Source: Lepidodermella squamata
Lineage: Eukaryota > Animalia > Gastrotricha
Reading direction: 5' to 3'
DNA length: 64,000 nt
Assembly (NCBI GenBank): GCA_047495785.1
Contig: JBLDXI010000008.1
Coordinates: 13,987 to 77,986, forward strand
The position numbers were made by a program, and so were the translations under genes. The notes under the pieces are model-generated. The model was given only the letters and a program-made list of their open reading frames with translations. It ran no database searches and had not been told where the DNA came from. Below are positions 4,918 to 44,255 of the stretch, in pieces. Numbering within the stretch: the first letter of the stretch is position 1; each line of letters starts with the position of its first letter.

Positions 4918-5590
4918 TTGGAAATGTTGATCACATGTCTGGAGAGCGAACCAATCGATTTGACGCATTTCCCCACAGTCACTGAGGTGGGAGAGGAATA
5001 CGCCCAAAGCAACAAAGAGCTTTACATTACGTGCCTGAAATCGGTATCATCCGAGTTTAATCGTCGTTTCAACACAGACGATTTTCAACGTCTTCGCCTC
5101 TATTGTCGAGTTATGACTAGTCCACTTTGCCTGAACAACGACGACATGAAAGTACTTATCGACATGTTGCAACTTTCAAAGGCTGGGCTGCAGAACGATT
5201 TAATCAAAATGAAATCCGCCAAAGATCTGGCTACTGGTAACCAGTTAGTTTCCATGAAAGAGGTGGCTAACGCCGAACACCCTACTTTGCGCCTTGCCTA
5301 TTCTAAATTAGCAACTTTCTTTGCCACGACTTACGATTGCGAAGCGACATTTTCCGTCTTGAAGTTCATCAAATCGCCGCATCGAACAAGAATGACTGAT
5401 GAACTGTTGGACGCTTCGCTGAGATGCGCAGTTGGTGATCGGCCAGATTTGATGGAGATCTACAGAAAAACGATATCCAAACCCCACTCGTCTCATTGAA
5501 TGATAGCTTCGAAATTTGAGCGATGTGTTGTGAGCTCCGTTGTGAAGGAACCATGATGTTCAGGGTGATGTTCCCGCGTGCGAACCACTG
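4918..5590 (+). mobile_element. hAT (Buster/SPIN/GTF2IRD2-like) transposase C-terminal fragment with right TIR
   Basis: ORF 4918-5499 contains HPTLRLAYSKLATFFATTYDCEATFSVLKFIKSPHRTRMTDELLDASLRCAV (hAT dimerisation-domain pattern). GCGAACCACTG at 5580-5590 looks like a hAT right end and is followed by GTTTATTA, matching the nnnTAnnn Buster target. The N-terminal part is missing. Confidence 0.85.
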
Positions 5591-7152: not shown

Positions 7153-8217
7153 TCACAGATCAAACCCTAACTGTGCCGCGTAAAGTTTGAGTAATAAATT
7201 AACAGTTTTCTCATTTTCGCGGTCCTTCGCAATTTCCATCGCTGTTTTGTTGTCGCTTCGACGTGCGGTCATCGAAGCGCCCTTTTGAGCTAGAAACTCG
7301 ACTACGGCAACATTGCCCCGATCAGCAGCTAGCATGAGCGAGGTCCAGTTATCGAGCCCTAGCCATTTTCTCTTGGTCTCAATGTTGAAGATGTCGTAAT
7401 TCAACAGATTTTTCAGGCAATCTACCAATCCCCAGTAAGCTGCTGAGTGAAGGACAGACCAATTGCCAAGTTTTGCGATTCCAGTCGCGAAGTCTTCAAA
7501 TGTGAAATTCGGAACGATTCGAGATTTTTCGAGTTCTAAGGCAGCTTCTAACAGGAATTTTGCGACTTTCGGAGCGCCTTTACGGCAGCATGTGAACATC
7601 AAAGCGTTTTGGCCTTCTTCCCAGTGGTAGAAATCGGAAATCGTTCCCAGGCCGTGCGTTTTGCTGTCGTAACGAGCTGGCAATAGATGAGAGCTTCGAA
7701 TGTTGGCAAAATTTTCTAATGGCAGTTGGTTGAGGTCATCCGAGCTAGAGAGGATGAATTTTGGCTCGACTAACATTCGCCTTACTTCATCCAGCTTCCC
7801 TTCATAACAAGCCTCAAAAAAATCCTAGAATATAGAGGAATTATTTATTAATTCAGGACAAAATAGCGATAAACTTGCTTTTTGACGCTTATAGAACAGC
7901 TCGACGGCTGAAACTCGCTTCACCTCGATAGGCTCTGAATTCTCCTCGGCAGCTTGAGTTTGCTGTTGGTAAAAATTCTCTAGCAGTTCATCTGGCAGTA
8001 AGCCATTGCCATCTGGCGAAAAAGGATCCATTCCGTAGTCTTCGATGAGAATTGTTACTACATCTGTTTTGCCGTACGCCGCTGCGACATGAAGAGGCGT
8101 TGTTTGTTTGAAATTCGCGAAATCGATGCGAGTCGTTAAGATTTTGAGCCATTCTTTGTCTTGCAGTACTGATGGTATATCAGGTAGATCCCCCGTAGCT
8201 GCAGCTTCGAAAATACG
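7153..8217 (-). CDS. Ankyrin-repeat protein, 3' exons (8217-7879 and 7824-7153); 5' end unresolved
   Basis: TTPLHVAAAYGKTDVVTILI, WSVLHSAAYWGLVDCLKNLL and WTSLMLAADRGNVAVVEFLAQKGA ankyrin repeats. The exons join in frame through a 54-nt GC-AG intron (7825-7878). Confidence 0.8.
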
Positions 8218-9609: not shown

Positions 9610-9855
9610 ACGCTCTCAAAGACATGTTCAAATAAAACAGTGCCTGAATGCTAAATGGGAAAGCAGATATCGCAGAAATTAACGTGAATGCGTTGCGAAT
9701 AGAACGCGTAATGTCTGTTCATTGTTTCGCCTGGCACTCTCAAAGACATCGTTTCAAAAAATGCATTGCCTCGCGTGCAAAAGGCAGAGCGGCTCTCACA
9801 GAAACATGAATGTGTTGCGGATAGAACGCGTCATGTCTGTTCATGGTTCACGCCA
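9610..9855 (-). repeat. ~120-bp-unit dispersed repeat family, copy in reverse orientation
   Basis: GAACGCGT(A/C)ATGTCTGTTCAT occurs twice about 120 bp apart; it is the reverse complement of ATGAACAGACACGACGCGTTCTC seen at 12.2-12.6 kb, 15.0-15.2 kb and 15.7-15.85 kb. Confidence 0.7.
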
Positions 9856-10133: not shown

Positions 10134-11389
10134 CCAGTTCGCCTGTCCCACGTCCCACTTCGCTCTCCGATTTCAGGAAATGGGAAATATGATCGGAATG
10201 AGGAACAGTTGGGCTAACATTGTATTCCAGAAATTTAAGCTATCTAAATAATTTAAATTTAGTGCCGATATATATTTAGAGTGGGATTCGTTTTTATCAG
10301 GTAAACAAATGCATGGTCAAAGCTTTCCAGGGATGGTCAAATGGGCGGGGGAATAAGCTTGACCATTGAGCAACAATTCCATAGTGAAAAAATATGCTTA
10401 CCATTGTTTTTTTCAGTAGCGCCTTCGTTTTCGCCGGGTTCTTATCCTACTGCAGCAGGCGATTGTTTAGCAGTGCCGGGCACGGGCGCCGCTGTTCTCG
10501 CCTCCTGACCCGCATTATTAGCCTGTTTGTTTTTCTCCATCGCATCCGGGTCTTCACTCGCCTTGCTGCCGCTATCTAACGAAGGCGGTTCAGGCGTTTG
10601 CTGCTCGTTATTAGACGTTAGGTTTTTTATAAATTTGATAAATTTGCTCATCGCGAACAGCTGTGTGTCTGTTTTAGATTTAGCCTGTCGGTATAGGTTT
10701 TTTTCGCTCCAGAAAAGCAGTATCGTTTATCGCTTTTTCTAGTATTGCTGTCGAGTGCTTAAAAATGTGTGTATGTAGTACTGATCTTATACCTGTTCTG
10801 GAGGCGAAAAACCGCGTAATGTATATACATAGAGAGTGCGCATAAGGATGCTCCTTATTAATGTTTTTTCGGCATGCCGCCTAGCAGACGATTGCTTTTA
10901 TTAGGTAGCCAACCGGTGCGTTGGCTGTGTAATGGACAGCGCCTGCTGCGGGCGTAATGTGCTCGTACTGTTTTTTCTTCCTTGCAGCAGCGGCCGGTAA
11001 TTGTTTATCACTTGCAATAAACGCGCCCCGTTCGAGTGTGTATGCTGAGTTGCGCTACCGTTTTCCGTGCCCAAAATACAAGCCCAAAAGCGGTATACGC
11101 TAATTGCAGCAGAAATAAGAATGAACGCAGAACATTCGTTTTGGTTGCGATAGATATTGTAGCGCAGGAGAAATTAAAAATGAAGTGGATCTCTGTCAAT
11201 CATTTTCAGAGCCTGAGATTGTGGCGATCAGTCCTGTCCTCACGTTTAAAGAGTTAAAGTCCTGAGAAAATGACTGGAATATAGGCCATATATCAGTTGT
11301 TTCAATGGATACTTAAGATGAAAGTTTATTTCAGAGCAATATAGCCTATAAAGTTAGGTTTAGTAAGATTGATTATGCCAATTCATCTT

Positions 11390-11841
11390 TCAACATTGGC
11401 GGACGCATACAGGAGAAGTCTTGCCTTGTGGAATAGTACATGTGCTGTATTGGGAGGAAAAAACACCATGATTGAAACGCAAGAATAGCCCGAACTTGGG
11501 ATGAAATTACCTTCCCGGGCAGCATGGCTTCTGGTCATCACCCTGAGTGCACGGCTGGCCAACGTAGATGCAGTTCAAAATGTGGTGATGCAACATGCTG
11601 CCCTGGCAAACGCCCCCGTTCATTTGCTTTTGACACACCCTGAAAATCGAAACAATTGAATTCGGTTGATCAAAGACAGCAGTTGAATATATTACAGCCC
11701 CGAGCAGCATTGGTCAGATTTGTTAGGATCAGACGGGTCGCAGTGTTCGCCCATTAGACCACAGCTGTGCCCATCGCAAACGCTTTGAACAGCAACGACA
11801 GCGCAGAATAACGCTAAGGCAACGGCAAGAACTGACTTCAT
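11390..11841 (-). CDS. Secreted double inhibitor-cystine-knot (double-knottin) peptide, 109 aa; exons 11841-11696, 11639-11511, 11444-11390
   Basis: Spliced translation: MKSVLAVALALFCAVVAVQS-VCDGHSCGLMGEHCDPSDPNKSDQCCSGLVCQKQMNGGVCQGSMLHHHILNCIYVGQPCTQGDDQKPCCPGSTCTIPQGKTSPVCVRQC*. Two GT-AG phase-2 introns (56 and 66 nt); AATAAA on the minus strand ~60 nt downstream of the stop. Confidence 0.88.
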
Positions 11842-12199
11842 TTGTATATTCAAGAGTGTTCGAGATGAAAAGAACAATATTGAGGCTGTTTTTTTTAGGT
11901 CTGCAGCTCTCGCGATAAGTTTGCGTTCATTTATCGCGCCTTTCATTGATAACAATCAATTAGCCTGGGAAAACGTGCTGTGCAGCACCAAGGTCATGGG
12001 CAAGGTTAGACCATTCAGACTCGCCGAAATATTGAAAATGCCACGCCCCCAGCTAAAACAGGGAGAGAACTCTTCGTAAACATGTTTTTATTTAGTTGAA
12101 TCGTGATTGGCTATTGTGTTGTATGAATACATGGAACTAGGCTTTATGGAAATCAAGGAAATTGAATTTTTTGAAATTTCATTGAGACCTTGAATAAGC

Positions 12200-12630
12200 A
12201 GAACCGACGCTTCCTACGTTTCACGTTTCATGGCAGAAGCTGCTTTCAGGTTTCGCATCCAGGATCCAAGCAATGGGTTTGTTTAGAATTTCTCTGAGAC
12301 AGCAAGCCATGAACAGTCATGACGCGTTCTGGTTCAATAAATGCTCTGAATTTTATTTTGAAAGCGTGAAAAATGGGAACAGACACGACGCGTTCTCTCT
12401 GCAACGCATTCTTTTTTCTGTGAGAACAACTTTCACGTTTCGCATAGAGGCAATGAATTTTTTCAAATTCTTTGAGAGCGTAAACAATGAACAGACACGA
12501 CATGTCCTATGATGTACATTCACTTTTCTGTAAAGGCCACTTACACGATTCGTATCAAAGCATTGCATTTTTTGACATTTCTTTCAGAACATGAGGCAGG
12601 AAAAGACACGACGCGTTCTCTCCGAAACAC
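12200..12630 (+). repeat. Degenerate tandem array of the ~120-bp-unit repeat
   Basis: Recurrent ATGAACAGACACGACGCGTTCTCTC and TTCACGTTTCGCAT motifs. Confidence 0.7.
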
Positions 12631-12869
12631 ATTGGCAACAGCAGCAGCGTAGCTGCTACAGTAGCGCCGGGGGAACCCATTGTACACGTGAATTTCCGTG
12701 AATTTGATACTTTGATTTGATAATACTCTGGGTGAGCTAAAAATAGCTACAAGAGAGCTAAAATTGTCTTCGACGCACTTGAAGGTGGAAGTCAGCCCTA
12801 AACTTGCATCATTTCAAACCAACAGCGGCGACGTTGTTAGAGACTTGTTTCACGCATAAAAATTTCGGC

Positions 12870-15014: not shown

Positions 15015-15850
15015 CTTCACGTTTCGCAACCCGCTATGTAATGAATTTCTAAATTTCTTGAAGACCGTAAACAATGAACAGACACGACGCGTTCTCTCTG
15101 CAACGCATTACCGTTTCTGTGAGAGCCACTATCACCTTTTGCATTCAGACAATGAATTTACTAAAAATTGTTTTGAAAGCGTAAACATTGAATTTGCCTT
15201 CGGTCTTTGACAGCTCACAGAAATTTCCTTAATATGAACATTTATTTGATGAAATGGTTCTCGAGTTTGCCATTTCTCAAGCACCTTCCATGCAAAGTTG
15301 ATATCGACTGAAACAGATTTTTTCAGATAAAGTTTCATTAATCTGACGAAATAAAACTGAAATGTCACAGGTCACAATATGGCATGTCACACGTGCTAAA
15401 TTCGTTGGAATCGCAGGTGCGCTGCGAAAAGACGGGCTTATTTGACACCTCATGAAGAGTGCTTCGGTGAGTGCTCGAGTCCCAGTTGAACCATTTCTCT
15501 GATCTCAGACCCGCGTTTATGAATGATCGGTGCGAAATTAGCACAAAACACTGATACGACGAAGCAAAAAAGTCAGACGAAGACTCATTTTTAATGACAC
15601 TCGTAAATCCTATTCGCAGGGGTACATTTTTAAGCTTACAAACACATCTTCCTTCACGTCGGACAGGCCGACAGACCGACGAAACGAAACAAGACCCACG
15701 GCAACGGGAGTTCCCTGTCTCAGACAGACAATGATTTGTCCGCAACGCATTCCTGTTTCTGTGAGAGCCGCTTTCACTTTTCGCATCAAGGCTATGCATT
15801 TTTGGAATTTCTTTAAGAGTTTAAATAATTAGCAAACAAGACACGTCCTC
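15015..15850 (+). repeat. Further copies of the ~120-bp-unit repeat (15015-15195, 15715-15850)
   Basis: GTAAACAATGAACAGACACGACGCGTTCTCTCTGCAACGCATT..GTTTCTGTGAGAGCC shared with ~12.4 kb. Confidence 0.65.
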
Positions 15851-16036: not shown

Positions 16037-18639
16037 TCAAGCGTTGCGAAAGCCAGCAGGTGTTGGAGCAGGTGTTCGTCTCTTATCCACTAGCTGTAAA
16101 TTAATTAAAAGAAAAACAAGATAGAAATCTATGGAAGTTGGAAATTTAGGAGTGTTACCAAATTTGAGAACGTATAAGTCGTGAACCAAACAAAGGCCAT
16201 AGAAATTAACGACATGATGGTAATCAAATTACTCGGTATCAGAAGTCCAAGAAGACCTGTGCCTCCCGCTGTAATCGCGATGCAAAATGATGCAAAAGAT
16301 AGTTTTTTCTCAGCTTGGTTGATGAAAAATCGCTTCTACAAAAAATGCACCAAGTTTCTTAAATGATTGACGACAATTCTGATACATACCGTTTTGATTT
16401 TGAAGCTAAGGAAAATCAGCTTCCAAGCAACAGCAGCAACTAACAAAATTACCGCCGTTTCTATGCCAATCGCAACATAGCTCGAGCCAAAAGCCAAATG
16501 ACATTCGGTCAAAAATGGCTGGTTGTAGATCGTTCCGTCACTGCTAGAAACGGGGAGGACCTTCTTGGCTAGATTCATTGGTCTAATCGCAAAAATCCAG
16601 ACAGCAATCAATAGGATCTCAATTAGTGCTAACACTCTACTGAGAATGTTACGGCTCTTACTCTGGGCATTGACTATGCCCTGGAATTTTATGGTAATCG
16701 AAACAAATGTGACAAAAAACCCGACAGCGTAGCAAAACAACCTGGTATTGCAGGTCACTAGCGCGTCCCAGCCAGCCGTAGGATAAGGGATGGTGAAAAG
16801 CCCGGCTGTGATAATCAAGTTACCACAAAACAGCCAAATTTCGCTCTCATAAACCTTTCCATCTAATCTCGGCGTAGATTTCAAGTATAAATGCTTCCTA
16901 ACGAACCGGCGGAATGAGGAAGGCGATGTTTTGACCGCGAATATTTTTATACCAATGAATACAAACTGATAGACTAGGGTAAGGCTAGCCATGGTCATCA
17001 AAGTGATATATTGATCAATTCCGAGCTGAGCAGCTCGGTATTCGAAGTAGCGCTTCGAGTCGAAAGGCGCTGCGCCATCTTTCGTGGTCCACCTTAATCG
17101 ATTATTGAAAATTTGAATCTCAGCGGAACTAATGTTGTAGATTGCTACAATTCGCGGCTGTCCAAGGACTAATACCCCATTTCGGTCTCGATGCGAGTCA
17201 AACCTACTCAGGGTGATTGGGACATATCCTCTCGTATTCATTCTCGTAACAGGGTCGAAGGAATACGAACCTTTCATCCCAGTCATGTTGATTGAATAAA
17301 TACTATCCTTCATAATGCTGATCAATTCAGGGTACGTTTCGCGGTTATCAGCAAAATCTGACAGAGTTCGATTTTGATTGATAAGGCCCTCCTCAGTTTT
17401 GTTAAGGAGAAGACCCATGAATAGGACAACATCGTAAATTGTGAACCGATAGTAACCCCAGAAGCCACTTGTTTCTGGGTTTACTATTTTTCGTTTCATC
17501 TCCTCATCCCATTGAGACGCGGAAATACCGGAACTATCTCTATGCTGAGGCCCGACTACGTCAACTAGGGCTGAGTGGCCAAAAATCACAGCGTTAGCCA
17601 TCACTTCGTTAATCATACCGATTGTGCACCATGCCGATTGTTCTGCAGGCACGTAGCCATTAGGAAAGCTGTCCGACCAGTACCAGAACATTGGAACGTA
17701 ATTAGGCCCGTACATGCCGTAACGATGCAGCCAACAAGCTTTTCCCGACGCTCGATCTGCGTCCATCAGAAAAATTCTCGCATCATGTGCCTTCAATTCT
17801 TCAAATACAGGAATCATATCGTTGTCAAATACAGCAGCATGCGATGACTTGCTTAGATGAATAACCGATATATTTCTCGTTTCAAGCATTGACAGTAGAT
17901 ATTTTTGAAGGCTGTCGTACAGCAGGAAACTCTCAGAAACAATAGCCACCCTTCGCCAGCTCATGGATCGGATGAACTCAACAGCTGCCAGGTGTCCAGC
18001 TTCAAATCGCTGGGCCAGGGCAAAGTGGTTACCAAAACGCTGCCTTTGATAGTACATTTCAGGAGAGAGCATTGACAACGTTAGGGCGAAATGATCGAAG
18101 TGCTTAGCCGATTCTGCGACTGTTCGAATCCCGACCGAGTCACAGGCCATGCTGACGAAAACCGGGAGGCGATTTAGGCCTGGTTTTATACCACGCATTC
18201 GAGAGAATGACTCCTCGATGGTCACATAGTCCATGCACTAGAGGTTCAAATTTAAGGCGGCTGCTGGAAAAATTGAAGTACTTACCTTATCGTCAAACAT
18301 TTCTACAGCGAGTTCGTAATTGTCGAGGAAGTTGGGCATGCTTTTCAATCTATCCAGGGCCAGCTCAACAGCTTTAGTAGCGATAGGGCCAGTCGCCATT
18401 TCTCCCGCATAACTAACGCTCGCCATTATAGTAATAAGCTTTCTATGCCCCATTGTTGATAGGTTGTAGGTGGAGGCAACAGCATACGGCGGGAGTGGCT
18501 GAGCATCGAGACGAACAAGCTGTTCCCTGGCAGTTGTTTCATTCATTGGAAGGATAATTTCTTGTTTCGCAGCTACAGCGAGAGCAAAATTCATAGTAAA
18601 CGCAGACGTCATCAACATAATACAAAAAATCCCGCTCAT
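16037..18639 (-). CDS. Class C GPCR, GABA-B-receptor-like (Venus flytrap + 7TM), paralogue A; 4 exons
   Basis: Signal peptide; AVELALDRLKSMPNFLDNYELAVEMFDDK^C; WRRVAIVSE; LKAHDARIFL; ACWLHRYGMYGPNYV; no cysteine-rich domain; 7 hydrophobic segments (TM6-7 in exon ~16163-16336); last exon ends LVDKRRTPAPTPAGFRNA*. Confidence 0.88.
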
Positions 18640-22944: not shown

Positions 22945-24654
22945 ATGGCGCTACTTGCTTTGAATCGCGATCAGCTCGAAACGATTCGCGGCCACAGATA
23001 TGTTGCCGAAGACCGCAGTTTCCTCGACAATACAATAATGCCACCCTTCTGGAACTACATTATGAGATTCGTCCCTGAAACGCTGTCATCAAACCTCGTC
23101 TCACTAATCGGAGCTTTATGGGCTATCCTGCCTAGCCTGGCCTTGGTTTGCTACAGCCCTGATGCAAAACAAAGCGAAATACCACCCTGGCTACTCTACC
23201 TGAGCGCCTTAGGAATTTTTCTATGGCAAACCTTCGACGTAATCGATGGGAAACAAGCGAGAAGAACGAAAACTTCATCGCCACTTGGCGAATTTTTCGA
23301 CCACGGCTGCGACAGTCTGTCAGACCCAGCGACAGTCCTAATGTTTTTCGTCGCTCTTAAATTCGGCGAAAATTTGAACCTGCTCTTCATCGCCGGCCTT
23401 CTGAGCCCATTCTTTGAGTACAGCTTCTACTGGCGGGCCCATTACTCGGGCGGGTCTTACGTTTTCGGCCTTTTCGACTGCACCGAGGTTCAAATGGTTT
23501 ACATCGCCATGATATGCCTGCAGGCTTCAACTGGGCAGCTATTTTTCGAGGCGAATTACGTGCTTCAAGCTCTGCCGGTTGTCTTTTACTTTATTTACGC
23601 TGCTTACTTCTTCATTGATGTTTGGATCGATTCCATCGCACATTTTTGGAAGCATATTACAGGTATGTTGCTATGGGAGCAAAATTTCGTAAACATATCA
23701 TTAGGGGATAAATTTGCGTTATCCGTTTTGCGAATTGTGGGGATTGCTTGGGGTAGCCCGTAGCCCAGAATTTTGACCACGAATTGGATATCGCTGTCTA
23801 CCTCCCTCCCATCCGGTAGTTTGAAGTAAGGATTGCCACCATGTGGTTTTATAGCTAGAATCTTCCCAGATCTTTGCCGACTGAAGCAGAGATAACAGGC
23901 TGAGCTATCGAATAAAGGAAAGAGCTTCTAAACTGATCCACAGATACGAGATTCAGTAATCAGCAGTGCTGCAACCACAAGGAAAATCACCGAGGGAACG
24001 CGAGGATAGCTCAAACTTGAATCAGATTGATATTCCTTTCTCGGAAATTACTTCAGAAAATTATGCCATGGCTGGCCCACTTGGAATGTTAAATCACATA
24101 TTTTTTAGAGACTTAAGGAAAAACATGTTCTGAATTACCTTTTATCAACTTCATGAGATTTTTCCACTATTTTAGGTCGCGGTGATGAGACATCAGCCCG
24201 AGCCGTTAGCGCCATGGCTCCAGCTGCTATAACAATCGGCCTAGCCATCTCGGCTCGGTTGCTAGGCAACGGCGTCTACGAAGCATACCCCCTCGCTTTT
24301 CTTATCGTCTTCATCATGGCGATCGGCAAACTCTCATGCCGCTTAATTGTGGTCAACATGTCAAAATCTCGCCTCACAGCGCCCTTCAACTCAGCCATGC
24401 TAGCTTTCGTACCATTTTTCATGGCCAACAGCTCGCTGGACATCATTTCACCTCGAACAGCTATCACGCTATCTCTGGCCTTCGTTGTAATAGACTATTT
24501 CACCCAATTTGCGATAATTTGCTGGCAATTGGCGATATACTTCAACGTCAGCATGTTTACAATGAAGCCGAGAAAATTGCTGAAAGTCGACGATAAAAAA
24601 GTTTCGCAGTTGTCGCATAAACTCAATTATGTCGAAGTTTGCGGTATGCAGTGA
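22945..24654 (+). CDS. Choline/ethanolamine phosphotransferase (CEPT1/CHPT1/EPT1 family); exons 22945-23662, 24176-24654
   Basis: CDP-alcohol phosphotransferase motif DVIDGKQARRTKTSSPLGEFFDHGCD; N-terminal HRY..EDRSFLDNTIMPPFWN; phase-1 intron joins the two ORFs in frame. Confidence 0.92.
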
Positions 24655-26808: not shown

Positions 26809-29800
26809 TTAGACGTAAGTCTCGCAGACAACAGCGCTTGGAGCATCTTGAGCCGTAGTGATGCAATCAATGTCGTTGAGGTAGAAATCGGCTGGGTTCG
26901 GGCCGAATTTAGAGTACATACTGTACGCAGCACAAGCTAGCGGGCCGCTTGGTTCGTCCTGCTGGACTCCGTTAACTACAGCGCCACCCCACTGGCGGTT
27001 GAAGGCGGTGAATGATGAGCCGTCAATCCATTGGTATTGGCTGGTTGCGTACTTGAGTCCAACCCAGGCGGAGGTCGTAACATCGGCATCGTGCAGGGCG
27101 AAGCGGACATCGTCTTGTTCAGCAACGGTTTTGACGGTCGCAAGCTGGCCAATGCGGCCTTGGCCATCACCCTGCTTACAAAGACGATCGGCATCAAAAT
27201 ACCTGCAAATTTTTGCAAAATTCATCAAATTGCAATGGTTGCTATGGAAATGTATTTATCCAGGCATCTGATAATCCCCTTCTAAAGTCCAAGGCGTTTC
27301 CCTAGCGACCGTTGCTATGGAACCTTTCACGCTGATGCTAATGGCACTAAACTAGAGCTAACTAGTATGTACGCCACCCCTTAGCAACAGTTGCTATGGA
27401 TGCTAAAATGATGCTCTGCCCTAGCAACCGATGCTGTAACATTATGGATGGCGATGAAACAAAAAAGTACTTCATGATCTTGTCGCCTAGAGGCCGCTCA
27501 ATCACGAAAAAGGTCTTCTTCGCAGTTTCGCACGATTGCTTGGATTTGTATGCAACGTCCAATGGCATTTGTACCAGGCTTTGGCAACCAACCAAGCTCG
27601 GACGGCAACTAGCAGCGCCAGCATTGTTGGTATCAATACACCGAACGTAGCCACGCTTAAAACAAACCATGATTCAAAGTCAGGTGAAAGGTTATTGACA
27701 TAGCTAACCGGTTTGAAGCTGTAAGTCTCGCATATAGCCGCATTGCCATCGGAGCTATCATCTGCATAATAATCGGCAATCTGTTGGCCGAAACTATGGT
27801 ATGGACCGAACGCAATGTATGGCTCGTTGGCGTCAGGTTGCTGATCGCCCCAGAATCCTTCCATCGCTTGTAGCCTACTACCATCAGGCCACGAGTAATT
27901 CCCATCTGCCAAACGAGAACCTCCGGTCCAACCGTAAAAGTTCTCAGCACCAGATGCCGACAACATTCGGCGGAGTCTAATTAGGTCCAGTTGGTCCTTA
28001 ATCGTCGCTAATTGGGCACCGGCTTCCAAGCAGGTTGAGACAGCCAAATCGCGGGTAGGCACTAGGGCAAGAATCAACCTGAATTCTTTTCCAGCGGCCA
28101 AGCATTGCGCCTCGGTTAGGAAAAGCTGGTCCTGAGGATTTTGCGTCGAGCCAGCGCAGCCGGTTGAGGCGGCAACACAACTTATAACGCCTTGGTTGTC
28201 ACATCGCACAAAGCCGAGTGTTGCTGGGCTAGGTTCCAAGAAGGTTTCGCAGACAGCTGCTGTAACTTGCGCATCGCACGAGTCGTCGTTCAAGTAGTAA
28301 TCTGATGTGTAGTTTTTGAACCCATTCTGTTGTTCGTAAACGACGCAGGGCGAGTTATCTAGCAAAACAAATAAACTTACATTTTGGGAATTGGAAATTT
28401 CGACCATGACAAATTTTGGCTCCATCGGGATCAAGTCAGACCACTGATGATGAGCATACCTGAAGGTTCGTCTGAAGTCTCTGTTCCACCCCACTGGCGA
28501 ACGTTGTTGTCGAGCGAAGAATATGGGGTGCCATCGATCCAGCTGTAGCCAGTCGCGACATTGACGCCCAGGCTGTTATCAGGCCCCAGGAGGCCAATCC
28601 ACGCACGTTGTACGTTGTTGGTGCGTAATAGATCCCTCACAAATGTCTGCTCGGCGGCCGTTTTCACAGTGGCTAGCTGGCCTTTCACAGAAGCGCACAT
28701 CCCTTCGGCGTCGACAGCTCCTTCGAGGGTTGCCTTTTGCACAAGGAACAGCTGCTTTTCCGCACCCATGCACGACTCGCCAGTTATGAAGGTTCGACCG
28801 GCTGGAACTTGCTTCTCATTCTCGGGCTTGCAGCCTGGCGAGTCAAACGTAAAGTTATGGCATGTATCTTTCGAATTTTCCTACCGTCACTGGCTCGCTT
28901 GCACGAAAACGACCCTCCAGCTTGGCATCTCACGTAGCCAGACTTCGAAAATTCGAATTTCAGTGCAAACTTAACAAAATGTTCACAAAACTTACGTAAG
29001 TCATGCAATCTTCGTAGTTTTTCGCGAAATACGGAGATTGGTCGAATATTTTCGTAAAATCCTGAAATTGGTACATTCAAATTTCCTGGTAAGATTTTGG
29101 ACGTAATAACCGTTTGAGCGGGTTCGCAAGCCTCATCCTGAGGAATGCACGTGTAGACCGACGGCGTCATTGAGTGGCACGCTTTCACACCCTGTTTCGA
29201 TCACAACTTGTTACCATTACTAACACACACCCAAAGGAAACTCACAGACAAAAGGCATTTTGCATACGAGGTGAACGTTTGAGCGCTCGGACTCTGCGAT
29301 AAAGGTATTCAAGAAATCATCCGATTCACGGGAAAATATGTTACCGTGTTTGCTGGGCATCCATCAGAGGCCAACTGGCACGAGTGGAACATGTTATAAG
29401 CATCAAAGCATCTTTTGAAGGAATCCTAAGAATAAGGCATATCAAAATCAAACGGAAACATTTCAGGATAGCCAACCTGTTTACAGTATTTTCGAGCCGT
29501 TGCGTAGTTGCTGCCGAAAGATCTGCTCGAGGAGAATGTACCCAGCTGTTGAGCTTAGTAGTTAGACCTGAGCTATAATTTAGGCTGAATCGAACTTACC
29601 TCGACTTGGGAAGGTAGGCATTCGAACTCGGCTCCACTGACTTGATAGAGATCACCTACATCTTGGTAGCAGCATTTGGCACCCGCATTTTCGCAGACAG
29701 AATGGTCGTTCAAAAATGGAGGGATCGTCGCGTCGAAAGCTTCAAGCTGTAGATGAAAAGAAATTAGTTCAGGATTCTATTATGGCAGGAATAGTCGAAA

Positions 29801-32800
29801 CTTACCCGAACAAGGCCGTTGCTGCATTGATCGGCTGCAGCTTCGCACTTTTTGAAAGTCACCGTATTCGGATCAATGCATCGCATGTATTGCTCTGAAA
29901 AATTCAAAAATTGATGGTTACTTCGAATCCACACGGAGCTTGTTCATGATCCGAGAATTTAGGGTTTTTTGGTCGTTGAAGAATTTTGGTTTGACCCTAG
30001 GAAATGGGCTCTTCAGGTTGAGAAATTTTTCCAGGAATCAGAAGATTCGAAAAGCAACAATTGAAAAATTCGAAAATAAGCGAGGAACAAGACAATACTT
30101 ACGGCATCTGCGAATATAGCGGCAATCTTCAATCTTGTGATAGTCCCGATCGATGAAGCAGTAGGTGCTATTGCGCGATCCAGGGTTACGGCACGCCCTG
30201 CCCGACGCTAGAATGTCGGCTTTGGGGAAACGAATCGGGCTGAACGAAGTCTGCTTCGACCAAGTTCGGCACTCTTTGCCGGACGCCGTATTGCGAACCG
30301 AGCCTTCATAGTCGTACCCGGTCTCCGTCATTTGGCATTCTTTCGTTTGCGTCAGAGCCGTCACGGATCCGCAGGGTGACATAACCACAAGCTTGAAGCC
30401 AGTCGAGTCGTTACGACCGGAAGGTGAGTGGAAAATGACGAGAGCTTCCTTCGATAGCGTTTTGTAGATTCGCCCCGAAGTCAAGCTGCACCTGCAGAAC
30501 CTAAACGGAAATCCAATAGTAAAAATCAAAAGTGGAGTGAAATTGGGGTGAGGGCGAACTTCGGTCCTGGCCTAGTGTAGTCTTCTGAGCGAATTTCGAC
30601 GTAGTCGTCGCAGACAGCCTCCCATTGCTGGCAAGTCAAGCCTGGGCGGCGTTCGAAGGCAAATATCAAGCCATTTCCATCCTGGAAAATGAAATTTCAA
30701 ATTTGAACATTATAATTTATGATGAATCATCGAAAAGGGCAATTCTGATTCAGAAAATTGTGCTTTCAAATTCAAATAAATTGATTTTTAATCAGGAAAA
30801 TGGTTACATCCAGATTAAATGAAATAAATTAGTTAGATATTTGATTAATTAATTAATTTCAAAAAATGTATAATTTAAGATTATTCATAATAGCATAATT
30901 TTCATTAGAATTTGAAAATTGAAATTTTTGAAATTTGACAAAAAATATTTTTCTTAGATCAACTTACAGTTTGAACTCTCCAAAAGCACTCGGTGTTAGC
31001 AGGATACTTGTCCGGGTAATTAGGCGAAGTGATGGCCTCGCCAGTGCTGCACTTCTGGATAACCTTAGTACCGCCACATCCGTTGATGACCGGCGCGATT
31101 TCATCGCAAAATTGGCCGCCAATGCCTCGCGGGCACACGCACCAGCCGCAGTTGAACGGATTTTCATAGCCACCGTTCTTGCAAACAGGACGCGTCGTAC
31201 TGCTGTTGCAGACTTTGGCTGCGAAAGAGAATAAAATAATAAACCAATAAACCGAGTCGAAAATTGTGAAGAAAATAAAAAACAAATTAAGCTTTTAAAT
31301 TTAAATTTTAAATTTTGAATATATTGAAAATTGGAAAAAATCAATTTGTAAATTCTGTTTTTTAGTCAGTATTATATTTCTGCATTTTTCCAATTTTATT
31401 GCGGCCGAAATAAAATAATTTCAAATTTAGAAAATCAACGCATTTTTTATTCTATTTCTGAATTTTTCTAAGAAATTCCAACCTGGACAATTGTAAAGCC
31501 AGTTGATGCGCTTAGCATCTAAGAAAGATAGGTAAAGCCGTTGGCCCATAGTGTACAAAAAGGCGGGATCTTTCGGTTCAATTGTTCGCCGTTTGCCGTC
31601 CGGGTTGAAGCTGAGCCACAGTGAATCGGGGTGCATGATAGACTCAAAGTCGTACGGCGTGTTGCCATCGCGAATGTGAGGGAAAATGCCGAAAAAACTC
31701 CGCTTGCCGCTGCAAAAAAATAGAAAATGTCACTAATTTAAAAATTGCTTTGAAATTGAAAAAAATAATAAAAAATCCGATTTTTTAACGGAGAATTTAC
31801 GATTTGCCTGAATAAAGAGAGGGGCCATTTGTAGAAAAATTAAATTGAAATCACTTGAAATTTCAAAAAAATTAAAATTTTAAATATTAACCTCATTATA
31901 TTTTTGTAAATGACTCGGACGTATTTGAATCGATCAGGGCGAGCAGTTTCATCAGCCTGAAAAAATACATGCCATCAATAATTTGGGACAAAAATAATTA
32001 GCAACAAACCAATCCTAGTGCGTGACCTATTTCACGCGCAACTTTTCCGACTCGCATGCAATCACCGCCAAGGACAATTTTCTGAACGCCAGACTTTGAC
32101 ATGCCAATTTCAGACTGGCACAGTTGGAAGCTTTATAGGCAAGAACAGATTGATCGTATCACCTAAGAAATGTTCATAGCTCACTTGGGCGATTTTGTAA
32201 ACAAAATGCTGTTGTTGAAATTGTTAAGCTCCTCAGGCGTATGTTCCTCGAACAACACGCAGGTCTTTTCCGTCCACCATGAAATTGCTTTTCGGATGAT
32301 ATCTCGGTCAGATTCCCCTGGAAAAGAAAAAAAATTAAATTATTTGAACAGATTTTTAGAATAAATTTCAAATTTTTTTATTCGAATTTTAAATTTCAAA
32401 ATTCTTTTGAAAAAGTTTGGAAATTAAAAAATTCGAATTGGAATGTAAATTTCACATTAGCTATTAAAATGCAATTTAAATAATTCTGAAAATTTTGTGA
32501 GAATTTCAAGAATTTTTAATTTTGTAACTTACACATATAGTCGATGAAAGCGTAAGGAACGAGGCGTGACGGCCACACTCGAACGCTTCGCGGGATGGCG
32601 TTAACGCGTGGCTGTTGCGAATATTGCTTGGGCGCAATTTGCATAAGCATCGACGCCAACGTATCGCGGTCTTGCTTCTTGTAAATTCTGTTCAGCAAAT
32701 TATCCGGGCACTCGTCGTGCGGAATGCGCATGCTGGCTCGAAATTTGTTCGACAGCCTATCCAAAATCTCCTCTTTCGTGAGCTGAAATTTAGGAAATAA

Positions 32801-33320: not shown

Positions 33321-33667
33321 GTATTTTTCGAACGAAAATTAAAATTAATAGTGAGAAATAAACATCACAAGGCACATTTCAAGGCACGCGATTGATTCTT
33401 TTATGAATGAAAAACAAAACAGGTGATGCACAAGTTTTACGTCAAAAACAACAAATTAAATATGAGAGGAAAATATTTGAAAAATTAATTCAAAATTAAA
33501 CGTTTGAAAAACAACGTCAAATGTAACTTTAAATAGAAACATTACTGCGAAGAAATTTCCCGGAAGGAAATCACGAACGAACATAGATAAAAGCCGGAAG
33601 CTCGAGGGTATCGATGGAAAAGGTCGATAGAATTATTTTTTCGGACTTTATTTCAAATGTTTCGAAA

Positions 33668-36600
33668 ATGAAGTTCAAATCACGATTTTTCACCATTTTC
33701 CTCAATTTTCTCGAAATTATTACAGCTATGAAATCTGAAGTAGCTGGAATCGCTGAACTGAAATCGGCCATCAAGAATCTAAGCTCATCACCTCAAATAA
33801 TTGCTGAATTAAGGGATCCAATGCCTCGATTTGTAACTTCAACCCATTTCAACACGAAATCGACATCGAACAGGACGAAAATCATCACAATTTTAATATC
33901 AATTAACTACCTGGGACCGTTAGCTATAGGTCCGATTAGTACAAAATCACTTGAATTAGCTCTCGACAGATTCGCTGGTTTGGACAACTGGCTGCCTGGC
34001 TATGAAATCGCTTTCGATTTGATAGATGACGAATGCATAGATTCGAATACAGTGGCTGGTTTGATGCATCAGATTCAGCGGAATCAGGACGAAGCTGCCG
34101 TATTGAATCGAATCTCACTCATGTTTCTTACAACGTGTTCAGCGCAAGAAACATCTGCTGAAGTTCTGAATTACTACAACCTAACAGGGGTAGGTGATAA
34201 AGACTGAATTTGCTGATATTTCGAAGCTCAGATTGTATTTATGAATCATTTTCTGAACCTCATAATCCAGAATAGCACACTAAGCAAATTTAATAGGAAT
34301 TATTGGGGAACCTTTTAAGCTCTTCACTGTACATTTCATGCAAATTACTGTAACGTTTTCAAAGCTTACAGAACCTTTGTTGGATCCTTAAAAATATGCT
34401 TTAAACAACGAATATCAACCTTGGGTACACTATCTACCTATTGAACCTGTTCCAGCTATTTCCACCGACCTTTCCAAGCCCAGGGAAGATTCCGGAACCA
34501 TTTCGAAGCTGAGGGAACCTTCAAACTACATTACCTGAGACCCTTAAAAGGTTCCAGTAATATTTCAATCCGCCATCTTGATAATTTGAAGACTCAATTG
34601 TTATTAATTTGTATAGATTTATGTGGTATTTTCAGGAAGAGAGGATTGAAACCCCTAAGGTATTTTTTTACTCGCAGATTCACCTAGATTCCTTTCACGC
34701 GTGGGTGAAAAGTTGAGAAAATGTTGTTACTCCGGGCTATTCGCACAGTCTAAATAAATGTCTGTCTGATTCCAGATGGCCTTGGTTCAAAACAACCCAG
34801 AATTCCTTCTACAACGTAAGCGGTACAAGCAGTTTTTCGGGCTTGGCGAAACAGGCGACAAACCCTACATAGCATTGGCCTCATTCGTCTCTCAGATGGG
34901 CTGGCGTCAGATTGCCGTCATATCGGAAATAGATTCCTACTTCAACGTAGTAAGTTCGATTTTATTAAGCTGAAACCTTTCAAGTATCTTCTTGTCACCT
35001 TGCCAGATCGAGCGATATTTCTTTCCTGCTCTCACGCGAATGAACATAACCCTAGCGTGGGTTGGCAAAGTAACGTATATGTCGTCGAACAATGACGAGT
35101 TGGTTTCAAATTTCGATGAGCTAAAATCGCACGATCAGCGAATTATCTTCGTAAATGGCGACTCCGCATCTGCCATGGCGTGCTGGCTGCATCGGTACAA
35201 AATGTTCGGACCATTCTACGCCCTGTTCTTCGTCAACTGGGTCTACACCCCACCAAGCGACAGCTACATCCCAGAATACGTTGAACCTTGGTGCACGAAG
35301 TTGATGATCGCCCAAGTTTACGAGGGAGCCTTTTTCATGGGCGATTCTTCACTGCTGGATGTCTACGGTGAAGATTGGACGGATTCGACTGGACTTAGTG
35401 GCAGGCAGTTTTTCGAAGGTATGAGGTCGAAAATCAATCGCCCTGAGGAATCGGCTGGCTGGCAGTATTGGCGGACTGTGTACTACGACGCTGGGCTGTA
35501 CCTCGGTTTCGTCCTCAATAAGACTGAATCGATTCTACGCGGAAGGAATCAAACCCTGCTTGACTGGGTGGTAAATTCTGAAAAATTCCGTGAAAATGCT
35601 TCGGAAATCATGAAAATCTACGAAGATGCCATATATTCGACCCATGTTCGAGGTTTCAAGGGGATTTACGACTTCGATCGGGCTACGACAGTCAATTCAA
35701 ACGGCTACACCCCTGCGACGATTTTTCAGCTGAGAAATGCGGAGGACTTGAGCAAGTACCCTGATCAATTCCTGGTTGGGATTTACCAATCGAATAACCG
35801 GACATATCCTCTTACTCTGCGGCGCGATCTTGTCAAATGGAGGACGAAAGATGGATTACCGCCACTTGACAGACCCATTATCGTGCCTTCAGAAGTTCCT
35901 TTGATACCGCAGCTTGTTGCTGGAACAATTTTTGGTGAGAGATGCATCCATTTACCCTTTACCCCAAATAATAGGATTCAAAGGAAAGTGATTGCTTTGC
36001 TTTGATTTACAGGTATTTCTACAATTCTCTCGATTTCTATGCTTTCGACGATGCTATTCATTACTTTCGGAGCAAACCCCAGTCATTCGACCTCTTTTAG
36101 CCTCTACGAGAAAATTCTTGGCTTCGGCAACGTTGTAACTTGTATTTGTGGCTTTGCAATGCCGATAAATCATTCAATGAGAGCCAATCTCGCAATTTGC
36201 GCCATGGCCATTTCTATTTTCGCTTCTATCGGCTTTGTAGCCACAATGAGCAGCATTATCGGCTACATCGAATTACTAGATGCAAGGCTGAAATGTTCCA
36301 ACAGCAGACGTTCTCGCCAAATCCTGAAACCCTCCTTATCAAATGGAAAGCAAAGTATCAGACTACCAAGCGAATCCAGTATGCAGGTCCGAGAATTTCG
36401 AACAGGACCTAGCTGTTTAAAAGCTGCAATTTTCGCTATGAACTGCTTCCTTGTTATTGGAATATTCGCGACAGGCCCATTGGAGACAGGGCGAGAAATC
36501 GGGCCAATGTTTTATGAAGATAATGATGCGAGTTCGATATTTCAAGCCTTTTATTACAAGCTGGTTGTTTCAGCATATCCGGATGAGGCGCAGACTATGG

Positions 36601-37130
36601 CGATCGGTTTGGCCGCTCTTCATTTCCTTATTTTTGTTTACGCTTGCTACGCGTCATTCAAATCCTGCAATGTAAGTCTTTCGATCTACTTTGAACGTTA
36701 AAATGTGTTCTGAACAATTCTGAAAAATTCTAATAAAGTCAGAAAAAATCTTGAAAATTTCTAATTTTAATACCTTGGAAAGGAGAAAATAAAAAACGAC
36801 CTATTTTTAGAATCTACATTCGACCGAATGGAATTCCGATTTGGTTGTTCAAAAAAGACGCATCAGCCGAGCTCTTTATTGTATCGCCCTGTTTCTAATG
36901 GCTACAACGCTCCTCGGTTTCCGTCTCGGTCCAGATTACATCCTTCCGCTAGGGACCAGCTTAGCTGTCCTTTTTTCCGCTACTTCATTTGGCCTAGTGA
37001 TACTACCAAAAGTGGGCGAATTTAGGTTTTTTTATGATTTTTCATTCAGTTTATTTCATTTGAGCAGGCTCTATGCAAGAATCCTGCTATTTCGACTATG
37101 AGATCGAGCATGTTAGCGATCCAACACTAA
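33668..37130 (+). CDS. Class C GPCR, GABA-B-receptor-like, paralogue B; 6 exons (alternative start 33614)
   Basis: ELALDRFAGLDNWLPGYEIAFDLIDDEC; WRQIAVISE; LKSHDQRIIFV; ACWLHRYKMFGPFY; WRTKDGLPPLD; TM exons 36013-36671 and 36811-37011; last exon ALCKNPAISTMRSSMLAIQH*. Clearly homologous to 16037-18639. Confidence 0.88.
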
Positions 37131-39663: not shown

Positions 39664-42384
39664 TTACTTGCCGATGAGTTGGGCAAGGATTCCTCCACCT
39701 TTCGCATTTTTTATGTTATCAATAACCACCTGCGCCTTATTCGCCTTTGCCAAATCGAGAGGCGTCCGCCCCTTGGCGTCCTTAGCCTTCAGAAGTTTAT
39801 CGTTCAGGCTGTAGAACAGCATCACAACGTCAGCTTTGTCCCCAGCCGCAGCTAAATGGATGGGTAATGATTTGGCATTTGTCGCATCGACTGCCAGCAA
39901 ATCAGCTCCGGCTTTGCACAGGTACTCTGAGGTTTTTATCATTCCCGCGTGGGCAGCTGCGTGCAAAGGAGATCGACCATTGAAGCCTTTCAAACTCAAT
40001 TGTTCCTTGTCAAGTTTGATCAGCTCAAATGCAACCTATGAAAAGTAAGAAAAAAGTATTGATTTAACTTAGAAAATCGGTAAAAACTAACAGAAATTTG
40101 GCCATTAGCAGCTGCTATGTGGATAGCTGCATCCCCGTTTTCATTCCTAGCCTTCAGCATGTCACGATCTTTGTTGATCAGTGCCAGAACAACGCTTTCA
40201 TGGCCCTGCTGAGCCGCGAGATGAATAGCCATCGACCGGGTGTCATCGTTCGTGCGGTTGTACAGGTTCACGTTGACAATGTTGATCAGAAATTCAACAA
40301 CCGACATGTGGCCGTTCCAACTTGCGTCATGCAACGGTGTGCTGTGCAGTTCGTTCTCGTTTTGATGCTCGAAAAGACTCCGGAAAGGCTCTACCTCGTC
40401 GCGAACTTCCCACGGCAGGCGTTGCTGGATTTCATAGATTATCTGTTTCAAACCCATGAAATTTCCACTCTTCGCGAATTGATGGATTCGCTTCCAGTAA
40501 TTTGCGGTCTGAAAACACAACAAATTTAACATGTTTGAGCCGCACTCAAGCATTAGTACCAATTGTTTGACAATGCTTTTAGCCTCATCTCGAGCGATCT
40601 TTTTCAGAGCCTCAGCTTGGACCGGGTCAATTTGAGGCACCGAAGGCGTGTAGACCGGCGGCGGTGCAGCCTGGGCGGGAACGCTAGCCCTCTGTTGCTC
40701 AATAACCCCCTCGGATTGCTTCGAAACACTCGCCTCCGATCTGCGTGAACCCGCGGATTTTTGGGACGAGGACGAAACTGCATTGGCATTGTTCGCATCC
40801 CGCCATCTCAAGATTACGTTTCGCAAGCCAACAGCCGGGAAAACCTCCTTGATTTGGTCTAAATCGTAGCCAAGAAGCTCCTCCGGTGTCACGTATGCCT
40901 CTGATAATTCCCAAAATTTAAGTGATAGCTAGAAGAACTTGGTTACCTTGAAGCATTTCGCATATTGGCTGTTTGTACTGATCCGGAATATCGGGCGACC
41001 GTAAAATCATTTCATACTGCGAATCGTCCTGAAAAAGCAAAAACGTCAATAAATCTAAAAATTGGAAAATAGAACTTACAAATCGAGTCACCGTTGAATT
41101 TGACTGTGTTGTAGGCTTCGATTTGTTAGTAACTGGCTTTGAGCTGCTGGAACTCCTCGCTTGCGATTTAGAGGGTTGAGTAACCAATCGTTCCCCGGCT
41201 AAAATCGGACTTTCCATCAAATCCTCAATCGTTGGCCGTTTTTTAGGGTCTTTCACAAGTATCGACATTACGAATTTACTGAATCCTGGCGAGTAGCCCC
41301 GGGTTTCATCGAATGGCAATGGCGTTTTATTGATGATGTTAGTTATTAACAGCCCCTTTGTTCCTTCAAACTGTGTTTAAAAGTTAAAATTTAAGCTGAG
41401 GAAAAATTGATCACTGGAACCTACTGGAATTTTCGCGTTGCCGATTTCGTACAATGTGATTCCCACAGACCAAATGTCGGATGGTTTTTCGTAAGGCTTC
41501 CCTAGGTGAAACTCCGGGGAGGAATAGGCCCAAGTTCCTGCCGTGGTTATCGAGGTCTTCCTGAAATTTCAAAAAAATTAAATTTGAAATTTTGCATAGA
41601 ATAAAAAATTTACTCGCTCTCCAGACTTTTCGATAGGCCGAAATCACCAAGCTTTATGTTGGTCTGATCGCCGGACATTAGGATATTTCTCGGCTTGATG
41701 TCACGGTGGACATTACCAGCACTGTGCAGGTAACTGATAGCGCTCACCAGTTGTCCGGTCCAGCGCAGAACTCGCGATTCAGGAAAAGGGCTCCTCTTCG
41801 ATTTATCAATCAGCGCTCCCAAATCGCCGCCCTCGCAATACTCGGTGATCAAAAAGTAGAAATCTTCCCCAGCAATTTTCTCTGTAATCACAATAACCCA
41901 ATTTAAGATAAAACCTCAGAATGATTTTCGTGAAAGATACAAAATATTAGATCAAATCGGATTAGTCGCTTTTGAAATCATTCAATTTTGATCAAGTCAA
42001 GATCAAATTCACTATTATATATCGTTCAAAAATCAATATTTTGGATCGAACTTGGATCAATTGCAATGAAATTGATCCAACTTTGATAATAACTCCTTGC
42101 TAACCTTCAAAAAATCCGTAGACCAGTAAAATGTTGGGATGAACGAAATTGCGCATTTTTTCATGCTCATTGCGACTTAGTTCGAGAAGGCGAACGATTT
42201 TGCGCTCACTTAGCCCTTCATGGTCGTAATTCTTGCGCAAAGCGGTCAAGTTAACTTCTTTCATGACATAGCTTGTGTATAGGTCGTTTCGGTGCTTCAC
42301 GAGGCTGACATTGCCGAAACCGCCACTGCCCAGTTCTCGGAGCACTTCGAATTCGCTGCGGGATTGGAAACGCGTCGATGCCAT
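39664..42384 (-). CDS. NEK-like Ser/Thr kinase - SAM-like - ankyrin-repeat protein (multi-exon)
   Basis: LGSGGFGNV, VMKEV, EYCEGGDL, HRDIKPRNI, KLGDFG, AGTWAYSSPE, DIWSVG; SAM-like VTPEELLGYDLDQIKEVFPAVGLRNVILRW; ankyrins STPLHDASWNGH, AIHLAAQQGH, SPLHAAAHAG, GRTPLDLA. Confidence 0.88.
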
Positions 42385-42778: not shown

Positions 42779-44255
42779 CTATCTGTTAGGGGTTAACCCC
42801 GTCAAATCGTCCTCAGGTTTGGCTTTTGATGATGATGATGATGATGATGCTTTTGATCCAGACTTTGATTTGCGGTCGCCTTGCGAAACTTCTCCATTTT
42901 CGTGATTCCGCCAGCGCAGCACAACGTTGCGAACGCCTATTATCGGGAAAAGCTCCTTCAGCTGGTCATCCGAATATTTGACCAGCTCATCGGTTGAAAC
43001 TAAGTTCTTCTGCAGCACTTTTACGATTTTACTACGATATTCTTCAGGTATAACCGCCGACTGATTGATCTTCGAAAAATCCTGAAAACATAAGATTTCG
43101 GCTTTAAGGACGGAAAAACAGTGATGAAATGTACCATTGAAGCTTCAAGAATCTTGCTAGCATTTTCAGACGATTTCTTGGCGTCGCTCTTTTTCTCAAC
43201 AACTATTATTTGTTCCGTTTCATGTTGTAGAATCGGATCATTGAAGAGCGTCTCGATTTTCGGCCGTTTTACTGCGTTTTTCTCCAACATGGACATGACA
43301 AAGTTTTCAAAGGCGGTGGAATACTTCTTTTCAGCCGGAAAAGGCTTAGCAGGGTCCCTTTAACCGATAATATGAACACAAAAATCAGATATATTCGAAA
43401 TATTACTGTATTATAGCAAGAATCTCCCTGGCTCCACATCCGAACTGCAATATTCATAAGTTTTTTGAAACCAGCTTAAAAAACCCAACTTACAGGTCTA
43501 CAGAAAATTGCCAATTCATAAGCTGTGACGCCCAAAGACCAAATATCGCATGGCTTGCTGTAGGCCTCGCCATTGTGAAATTCTGGGGCCGCATACACCA
43601 ATGTACAAGCATTAGTGATAGATGATTGGGGCAGCGCAGTCCTTAAATACAGGAATTTTTCGAAATGAGTGAAATCTCAAATGACTCACTCTTCAATATT
43701 TTTCGCTAGACCGAAATCTCCGAGTTTAACTTTTTTCAAGTCCTTAGTGAGGAAAATGTTTTTCGGCTTAATATCTCGGTGCACGTGGCCACCCTGGTGG
43801 AGGTACAAAATAGCGCCGATCAACTGCCCAAGCCAGGAAACAATTTGGGTCTCATCGATTTGCGTTCCGTTGGTCTCGTTTTTCTGAATCAACGAGCTCA
43901 AATCACCGCCATCACAGAACTCCATGACGAGAAAATAGAAATCTTCTTCGCCAATTCTCTGCTCGAAATTGCCGTAGACTGTGACAATGTTAGGGTGGAC
44001 GAACTGTCGCAGGGCTTTGTGCTCTTTCCGCGCTAGTTCAAGCATTTTAAGCTGGCGCTTCTCGCTTGTCTGAGCTCGTGCAAGTTGACTTCGAAGCACG
44101 GTGAGGTTCACTTCTTTTAAGACATACTCGGAATATCGGTCCTTGCTGTGTTTGGCTAGGAAAGCGGAGCCAAAGCCGCCGCGGCCTACTGTTCTGATGA
44201 TAGCGAAATCGCTTTTCGAGTTGAACAGCACTAAGGAGTTATCTTTTCCTGCCAT
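42779..44255 (-). CDS. NEK-like Ser/Thr kinase - SAM-like protein (short paralogue, no ankyrins)
   Basis: VGRGGFGSA, VLKEV, HRDIKPKNIFL, KLGDFG, ACTLVYAAPE, DIWSLG; SAM-like VSTDELVKYSDDQLKELFPIIGVRNVVLRW; stop at 42779. Confidence 0.88.

Follow-up and report, generated by a model that had tools for sequence, protein, structure and literature searches.

Positions 11390 to 11841 of the window (the whole 64,000-nt stretch of Lepidodermella squamata DNA analyzed here) raise the question of whether pieces that are split in the ORF track encode one secreted peptide with two cystine knots and, if so, what is served by two Cys left over at its ends. The first-pass annotation had joined three short exons into such a gene and likened the product to avid ion-channel toxins. 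We suggest, with a probability of about 0.4, that the product is a secreted peptide with two heads, locked by disulfides, which binds an extracellular protein and most likely acts in defence.

A spliced gene for a 14-Cys peptide under purifying selection

The coding gene consists of three exons on the minus strand, and exon-by-exon translation places both of its GT..AG introns in phase 2. The features are listed below, where knots 1 and 2 denote the predicted ones.

11842..11878, minus strand: 5′ UTR; a loose end of run X1 lies behind 11878, and the coverage of X1 and X3 ends at about 11874-11880
11841-11696, minus strand: exon 1 (146 nt), with the leader, the N-terminal spare Cys and Cys I-IV of knot 1
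11782..11841, minus strand: signal-peptide-like leader, residues 1-20, assigned from hydropathy and small residues at −3 and −1
11696..11781, minus strand: exon 1 past the leader, with the spare Cys (mature residue 2), Cys I-IV of knot 1 and an N-glycosylation sequon
11640..11695, minus strand: intron 1, 56 nt, GT..AG, phase 2; spliced out in X1 and X3 but not in X2
11511..11639, minus strand: exon 2, 129 nt, symmetric (phase 2-2), encoding Cys V-VI of knot 1, a linker of 11 residues (three of them His) and Cys I-IV of knot 2
11445..11510, minus strand: intron 2, 66 nt, GT..AG, phase 2; spliced out in X1 and X3 but not in X2
11390..11444, minus strand: coding part of exon 3, 55 nt, with Cys V-VI of knot 2, the spare C-terminal Cys as the last residue, and the stop
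11262..11312, minus strand: 3′ UTR intron, 51 nt, GT..AG, 78 nt past the stop; skipped in X1 only

Splicing was assessed on the contigs of three public runs covering the gene (X1, X2 and X3), of which X1 was flagged as RNA by a mere guess and the kind of X2 and X3 was not recorded. Contigs of X1 and X3, which come from separate studies, skip both coding introns exactly at the proposed sites. The joints are 11444-11511 and 11638-11695, the latter being read with the cut shifted by +1 as 11639/11696, and they bear out the junctions 11696/11639 and 11511/11444 given by the first-pass annotation. The contigs of X2 span the introns and flanks, and neither joint is present in them. X1 and X3 were taken as cDNA because the introns are skipped and, for X1, also because of the adapter-like loose end at 11878, the letters of which we take to be a template-switch cDNA adapter. 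The transcript likely starts near 11878. At the other end, an AATAAA motif at 11330 lies ahead of the 51-nt intron in the 3′ UTR. Since this intron is spliced downstream of the motif, at least two alternative 3′ ends are possible. Downstream of the gene, X1 also has joints on the opposite strand, which were set aside as library artefacts.

Translation of the spliced exons gives a product of 109 residues with 15 Cys, one of them in the leader, and reproduces the 89-residue mature peptide with 14 Cys that had been counted before. The leader of 20 residues has a hydropathy of about 3 (9-residue windows starting at residues 3-10), which agrees with the earlier reading and suggests a signal peptide and a product of the secreted type. 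In the mature part, the Cys occupy positions 2, 7, 14, 25, 26, 31, 40, 52, 59, 68, 69, 74, 85 and 89, with the spacing 4-6-10-0-4-8-11-6-8-0-4-10-3. They include two tandem C-C-CC-C-C sets (6-10-0-4-8 and 6-8-0-4-10) of knottin-like order and spacing, as the first reading had it. Each half thus holds an odd number of Cys (seven), with one spare Cys on each of the short tails outside the knots (four residues at the N end, three at the C end). The linker had been called His-rich; of its 11 residues, three are consecutive His. The single N-glycosylation sequon falls in the long second loop of knot 1. It should be noted that a half-knot motif matched three times in the window (two of them inside the gene), and that 60 shuffles gave 0.83 matches on average and 3 at most. 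The motif alone is not above chance, so the case rests on splicing and selection.

A second copy, either an allele or a paralogue, was present in all three runs and keeps all 14 mature Cys. Relative to the window it carries 34 substitutions, of which 23 fall in coding sequence, eight in intron 1, one in intron 2 and two in the UTRs. All were assigned to one copy by assumption, from matching contig depths. The coding differences hit 22 of the 107 non-junction codons and split into 13.5 synonymous and 9.5 non-synonymous ones. The gene is under strong purifying selection (dN/dS 0.17, Fisher p 4e-5, over the 107 non-junction codons of the second copy versus the window). Among the amino-acid changes, five are in the leader (to Ile, Thr, Ser or Gly), four are in the mature part and none affects a Cys; the codon of the last Cys carries a synonymous difference. 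Through one of the changes, the residues after the CC pair become identical in the two knots. Loose ends at 11336 suggest that the 3′ UTR intron exists in the second copy as well. In the runs, over 10900-12300, the second haplotype or paralogous copy is about 20% different at synonymous sites of the gene, which is high for alleles, and X2 shows many substitutions and indels relative to the window in the gene flanks.

The neighbouring genes are of animal type with short introns, in keeping with an invertebrate-like animal, and encode ankyrin proteins, GABA-B-like receptors, a C-type lectin, a kringle domain and a kinase. No second knottin gene or paralogue was found within the 64,000-nt window. 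A Cyclotide Pfam match at 51694-52182 (E 0.013) was rejected, as it had no signal peptide or knot framework. A family of degenerate repeats, each unit being about 110 nt long, flanks the gene (9681-9853, 12238-12633, 15046-15207 and 15717-15849). Copies on opposite sides of the gene are mutually inverted over up to 91 nt, with 77% complementarity, and the family is possibly a non-autonomous transposon or a minisatellite. Two divergent class C GPCR-like genes are located at 16336-18639 (−) and 33614-36701 (+). The former matches GABA-B receptor ectodomains (E 7e-12) and has an apparent in-frame stop within a likely 48-nt GT..AG intron (18285-18238); the latter resembles it by eye only. The ORF at 22945-24654 (+) is choline/ethanolamine phosphotransferase-like (CEPT1-like), being 35-45% identical to the best 120 of 772 matches. 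A tree built with 59 of those 120 rows left it unplaced on a very long branch, and its divergence suggests a poorly sampled or fast-evolving lineage. Ankyrin-repeat ORFs were found at 7153-8217, 40020-40892 and 44933-49297, with three in a row on the plus strand adjoined by a kinase ORF (43686-44255), and a fragment of a hAT dimerisation domain was found at 4918-5499. The ORF at 27502-28494 (−) carries a C-type lectin domain with a weak DSL-like stretch before it and a hydrophobic segment after it. Upstream on the same strand lies a kringle exon (30038-30529), and the two possibly form one mosaic membrane protein.

Probable internal duplication and the predicted fold

The two knots seem to share one origin. 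Both splice donors are located 14 nt past the first base of the CC pair, so that the introns occupy the matching position in each repeat. The N-halves of the two knots are alike in DNA (p 0.0015 in 2000 shuffles, a value inflated by the Cys codons), and the two introns are weakly alike (p 0.02, in a comparison that includes the splice signals). For the non-Cys residues, the protein similarity of the two knots falls short of significance (p 0.067, 5000 shuffles). The shared phase and position of the introns, together with the DNA of the N-halves, support the earlier suggestion that the two-knot gene arose by internal duplication. Furthermore, the frame without exon 2 stays open and gives one 8-Cys framework with the spacing 4-6-10-0-4-10-3, which makes a single-knot ancestor with an N-to-C fourth disulfide likely. 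We consider it probable that this ancestor was one 8-Cys knot with its first and last Cys paired and that the intron-spanning segment was then duplicated internally. An ancestral N-to-C pair followed by such a duplication would leave the old pair split between the two knots.

Based on the order and spacing of the Cys, an inhibitor cystine knot (ICK) is the predicted fold. It is defined by the disulfides I-IV, II-V and III-VI, with the third threading a ring (PMC6024828). Homologue searches used exon pieces or their alignment as queries, which reduces sensitivity. None of the four exon pieces matched Pfam at E ≤ 10, the single-exon queries were without a match in the PDB, and the exon 1 search gave 14 candidates with none at E ≤ 10. 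A word search returned no candidate relatives of exon 2 among longer proteins. Profile A4 run against 1.84 billion protein representatives yielded no true relative. Its one match (P0121, E 4e-5) was rejected as spurious: the ORF is repetitive and unnamed, aligns three times over nothing but a linker-like stretch, and has no framework. Of 595 pattern matches in metagenome contigs and 24 in viral contigs, none was confirmed, and the exact 21-nt pattern did not occur in the metagenome contigs. A profile of the two N-halves gave three PDB matches at E ≤ 10: one was the cactus knottin Ep-AMP1, and the other two were entries for one unrelated bacterial protein. The Ep-AMP1 match (E 0.84, weak and not significant) aligned over Cys I-IV and is the sole lead among solved structures. 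In the Atlas, spider and cone-snail toxin families, UPF0506 (0.80) and a Dickkopf-N cluster (0.78) were obtained, all at 0.85 or less and, being below 0.9, as leads only. In a single-sequence model of exon 2 (pLDDT 69, pTM 0.37), strands 2-4 and 10-13 make a hairpin between the predicted Cys V and Cys VI, where an ICK would carry its β-hairpin. Fold searches with this model returned zero matches, which carries little weight for a permuted fragment. Overall, the exon-piece queries gave no significant match to any described knottin sequence family in Pfam, the PDB or the Atlas.

Given this lack of a significant knottin match and the Dickkopf-N cluster among the weak Atlas leads, the C-C-CC-C-C order might mask a non-knotted fold (ladder-type, Dickkopf-N-like or DDH-based), since Cys order does not dictate connectivity; spider family SF22, for example, proved to be non-ICK (bioRxiv 485722). 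We regard this as very improbable, because the spacing and the CC-x-G-x-C pattern follow Ep-AMP1 and Xt3a.

Another arrangement of true knots is also conceivable. Exon 2 is symmetric and carries exactly six Cys (V and VI, then I-IV), so exons 1 and 3 together could form the ancestral 8-Cys knot, into whose loop 3 a circularly permuted knot from exon 2 would be inserted. That would make the terminal disulfide an intra-domain bond and explain the pair without strain between domains. Modelled alone, exon 2 gave four short strand segments (pLDDT 69). However, the pTM of this model was 0.37, and its output contained no disulfide pairs. Furthermore, both crossover segments would be just four residues long, tandem knottins in the literature examined fold as sequential domains, and no exon-2-skipping joint was found in the contigs of the three runs, from which rare forms get lost. 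Thus, we find the nested topology improbable and proceed with two sequential knots.

The terminal Cys pair and the proposed action

For two sequential knots, we suggest the following assembly and action. Each six-Cys set would probably pair as I-IV, II-V and III-VI. The spare terminal Cys would likely form a seventh disulfide that clasps the predicted knots into a ring; that it bridges knot 2 back to knot 1 is about an even bet. The clasp gains support from the second copy, in which both spare Cys are kept, and from the 8 Cys of the frame without exon 2. Knottin termini are near enough to each other to be joined in cyclotides (PMC2984590). With such joinable ends, and with tails of four and three residues that would make a tether comparable to the 11-residue linker, the clasp appears geometrically reasonable. 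The linker would then tie the knots together on one side and the disulfide, as a tether about as long, on the other, which would fix their relative orientation.

The spare Cys, one on the short tail of each seven-Cys half, might instead link separate chains into dimers or polymers, or bond a partner protein, leaving two ordinary knots. Peptides with an odd number of Cys, possibly dimerising, have been described in centipede venom. The frame without exon 2, however, suggests that the two Cys evolved as a pair, and a partner within the chain is at hand, so we hold inter-chain bonding to be quite improbable, and the intra-chain clasp is retained here.

The resulting rigid two-headed ligand could act, at somewhat less than even odds, on a microbial or predator protein (an enzyme, channel or receptor) by specific binding rather than by membrane lysis. 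The mature part has a net charge of −2 (five K+R against seven D+E, with five His uncounted) and one aromatic residue, which makes membrane lysis unlikely. Antimicrobial peptides are usually net positive (PMC8085091), and the charge of this one does not correspond to a cationic antimicrobial knottin of the Ep-AMP1 type. The charge, the single aromatic residue, the absence of a propeptide and of a dibasic site, and purifying selection together disfavour a classic venom or membrane-lytic peptide.

The same features bear on a bivalent ion-channel toxin of venom or directed at prey, like DkTx, Hi1a or Xt3a, which the first-pass annotation had brought forward. The two-knot layout is the same, the 11-residue linker is near the 12 residues of DkTx, and the Atlas leads (all at 0.85 or less) include spider and cone-snail toxin families. 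On the other hand, DkTx binds through Trp and Phe (PMC10952689), and neither is found in the present mature part; there is no gene cluster in the window; the introns lie within the knots, unlike in 42 funnel-web ICK genes (PMC13172734); and the exon-piece and profile searches gave zero sequence homology to any toxin. With the propeptide missing and purifying selection acting, the earlier link to avid ion-channel toxins was overstated, and we judge a venom role unlikely and less likely than a binder used in defence.

The main rival keeps the fold and changes the role: the peptide could be an endogenous secreted ligand or a component of matrix, mucus or adhesive, with the His triplet and the sequon serving metal binding or matrix retention. 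The dN/dS of 0.17 fits such a role as well as it fits defence, and the single gene copy in the window, the charge of −2, the one aromatic residue and the sequon are consistent with it. Similarly, spider non-toxin ICK genes are expressed outside venom glands (PMC13172734), and no function has been defined for the double knottins of flatworm UPF0506. Characterised knottins in the literature examined are, however, mostly toxins, inhibitors or antimicrobials, and a repetitive or adhesive low-complexity region is absent. We consider the endogenous role rather unlikely and prefer the defensive binder.

A bolder version of the two-headed binder is somewhat unlikely as a whole. It is a ring-closed bivalent knottin, a high-avidity ligand of an unexplored animal lineage, whose seventh disulfide would lock the knots head-to-tail and be inherited from the 8-Cys ancestor. 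Its gene would have arisen by duplication of a symmetric exon-plus-intron unit that divides the knot through its middle; skipping of exon 2 could then toggle between one head and two. If true, it would represent a route to bivalency and to orientation fixing that was not found in the spider and remipede literature examined. The potency of known bivalent knottins depends on how their two domains are pre-oriented by the linker, and in DkTx such pre-organisation raises it (PMC10952689). With another covalent tether, nature would have met this need in its own way and produced a compact, stable two-headed scaffold. Should the terminal Cys serve otherwise, the peptide would still be a new orphan double knottin, modest in importance.

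Comparison with known systems

At the framework level, the peptide can be regarded as a putative double knottin, assigned to none of the described families. Spiders and a remipede are known to have double ICKs (PMC9950431, PMC6262176, PMC11288129), and their rarity had been overstated in the first reading, given that Xt3a, CpTx1 and flatworm UPF0506 are known too. Like the present peptide, DkTx, Hi1a/Hc1a, Xt3a (xibalbin 3) and CpTx1 have a signal peptide, two tandem six-Cys sets with a CC pair and a four-residue third loop, and a short linker (PMC9950431). The linker is 4 residues long in Xt3a, 6 in Hi1a and 12 in DkTx, versus 11 here (PMC9950431). The spacings of Xt3a, computed from its disulfide list (PMC9950431), are 6-6-0-4-10 and 6-6-0-4-9, in the same order as in our sets. 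Loop 2 of the present peptide, at 10 and 8 residues, exceeds those of Xt3a and the scorpion consensus. Unlike the double-ICK toxins, the peptide lacks a propeptide and carries spare Cys at both ends, for 14 Cys in all as opposed to 12 in Xt3a. Sequence homology to those venom toxins was undetected, and the gene structure of the Hc1a family, with a propeptide and a one-exon mature peptide, is not shared.

The gene organization differs as well. An intron interrupts each knot here, whereas the mature peptide is contained in one exon in the 42 funnel-web ICK genes (PMC13172734), and scorpion ICK introns are located before the mature peptide or at its start (PMC3694633). The gene documents an intron-bearing path to bivalency, in contrast to the studied spider cases, which arose inside one exon (PMC13172734). 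Short spliced orphan peptides of this type are missing from the large protein collections searched.

The flatworm family UPF0506 (PF11703) is similar in having 12 Cys in two C-C-CC-C-C sets, the first spaced 6-7-0-4-9 (bioRxiv 2020.02.03.932509). It is secreted by an animal without a venom apparatus, and its function is undefined (bioRxiv 2020.02.03.932509). In contrast to the present peptide, only two residues (rather than 11) separate its sets, the second set is spaced 6-5-0-3-4 and the terminal pair is absent from the published motif. PF11703 gave zero matches; the Cys order of the family is found here, but its published 12-Cys spacing is not.

Among single-domain knottins, Ep-AMP1 (PDB 2MFS), a cactus antimicrobial peptide structurally akin to spider knottins (PMC6024828), shares Cys I-IV and the following S-G in the profile match (E 0.84), as well as GGVC at the end of knot 1. 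However, it is a plant peptide of one 35-residue domain, and the match may reflect convergence of scaffolds. The conotoxin framework XIII (de13a) and centipede SLPTX17 show the order C-C-C-CC-C-C-C, which is that of the proposed single-knot ancestor (PMC4278219, PMC4379518). They are single-domain peptides, compared with the putative ancestor by Cys order.

Tied-down knot ends are also a feature of cyclotides, although these comprise a single knot and are closed by a peptide bond, not by a disulfide over two knots. In the spider tail-lock knottins SF6 and SF26, a disulfide holds the C-terminal tail, but there is a single knot and the pairing is with an internal strand Cys. The extra disulfides of spider knottins are described as tail-locks or hairpin staples, in which a terminal Cys pairs with an internal one and not with the other end (bioRxiv 485722). 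A bond between subdomains is present in the non-ICK family SF22, and inter-domain bonds are marked in Figure 7 of the same work (bioRxiv 485722). A double knot with a terminal Cys pair was not found in the open literature examined; supplements, ScrepYard or KNOTTIN could list one. Thus, double knottins as such are already known from DkTx, Hi1a, Xt3a, CpTx1 and flatworm UPF0506, and the terminal Cys pair of the present peptide is, as far as we found, a newly described arrangement.
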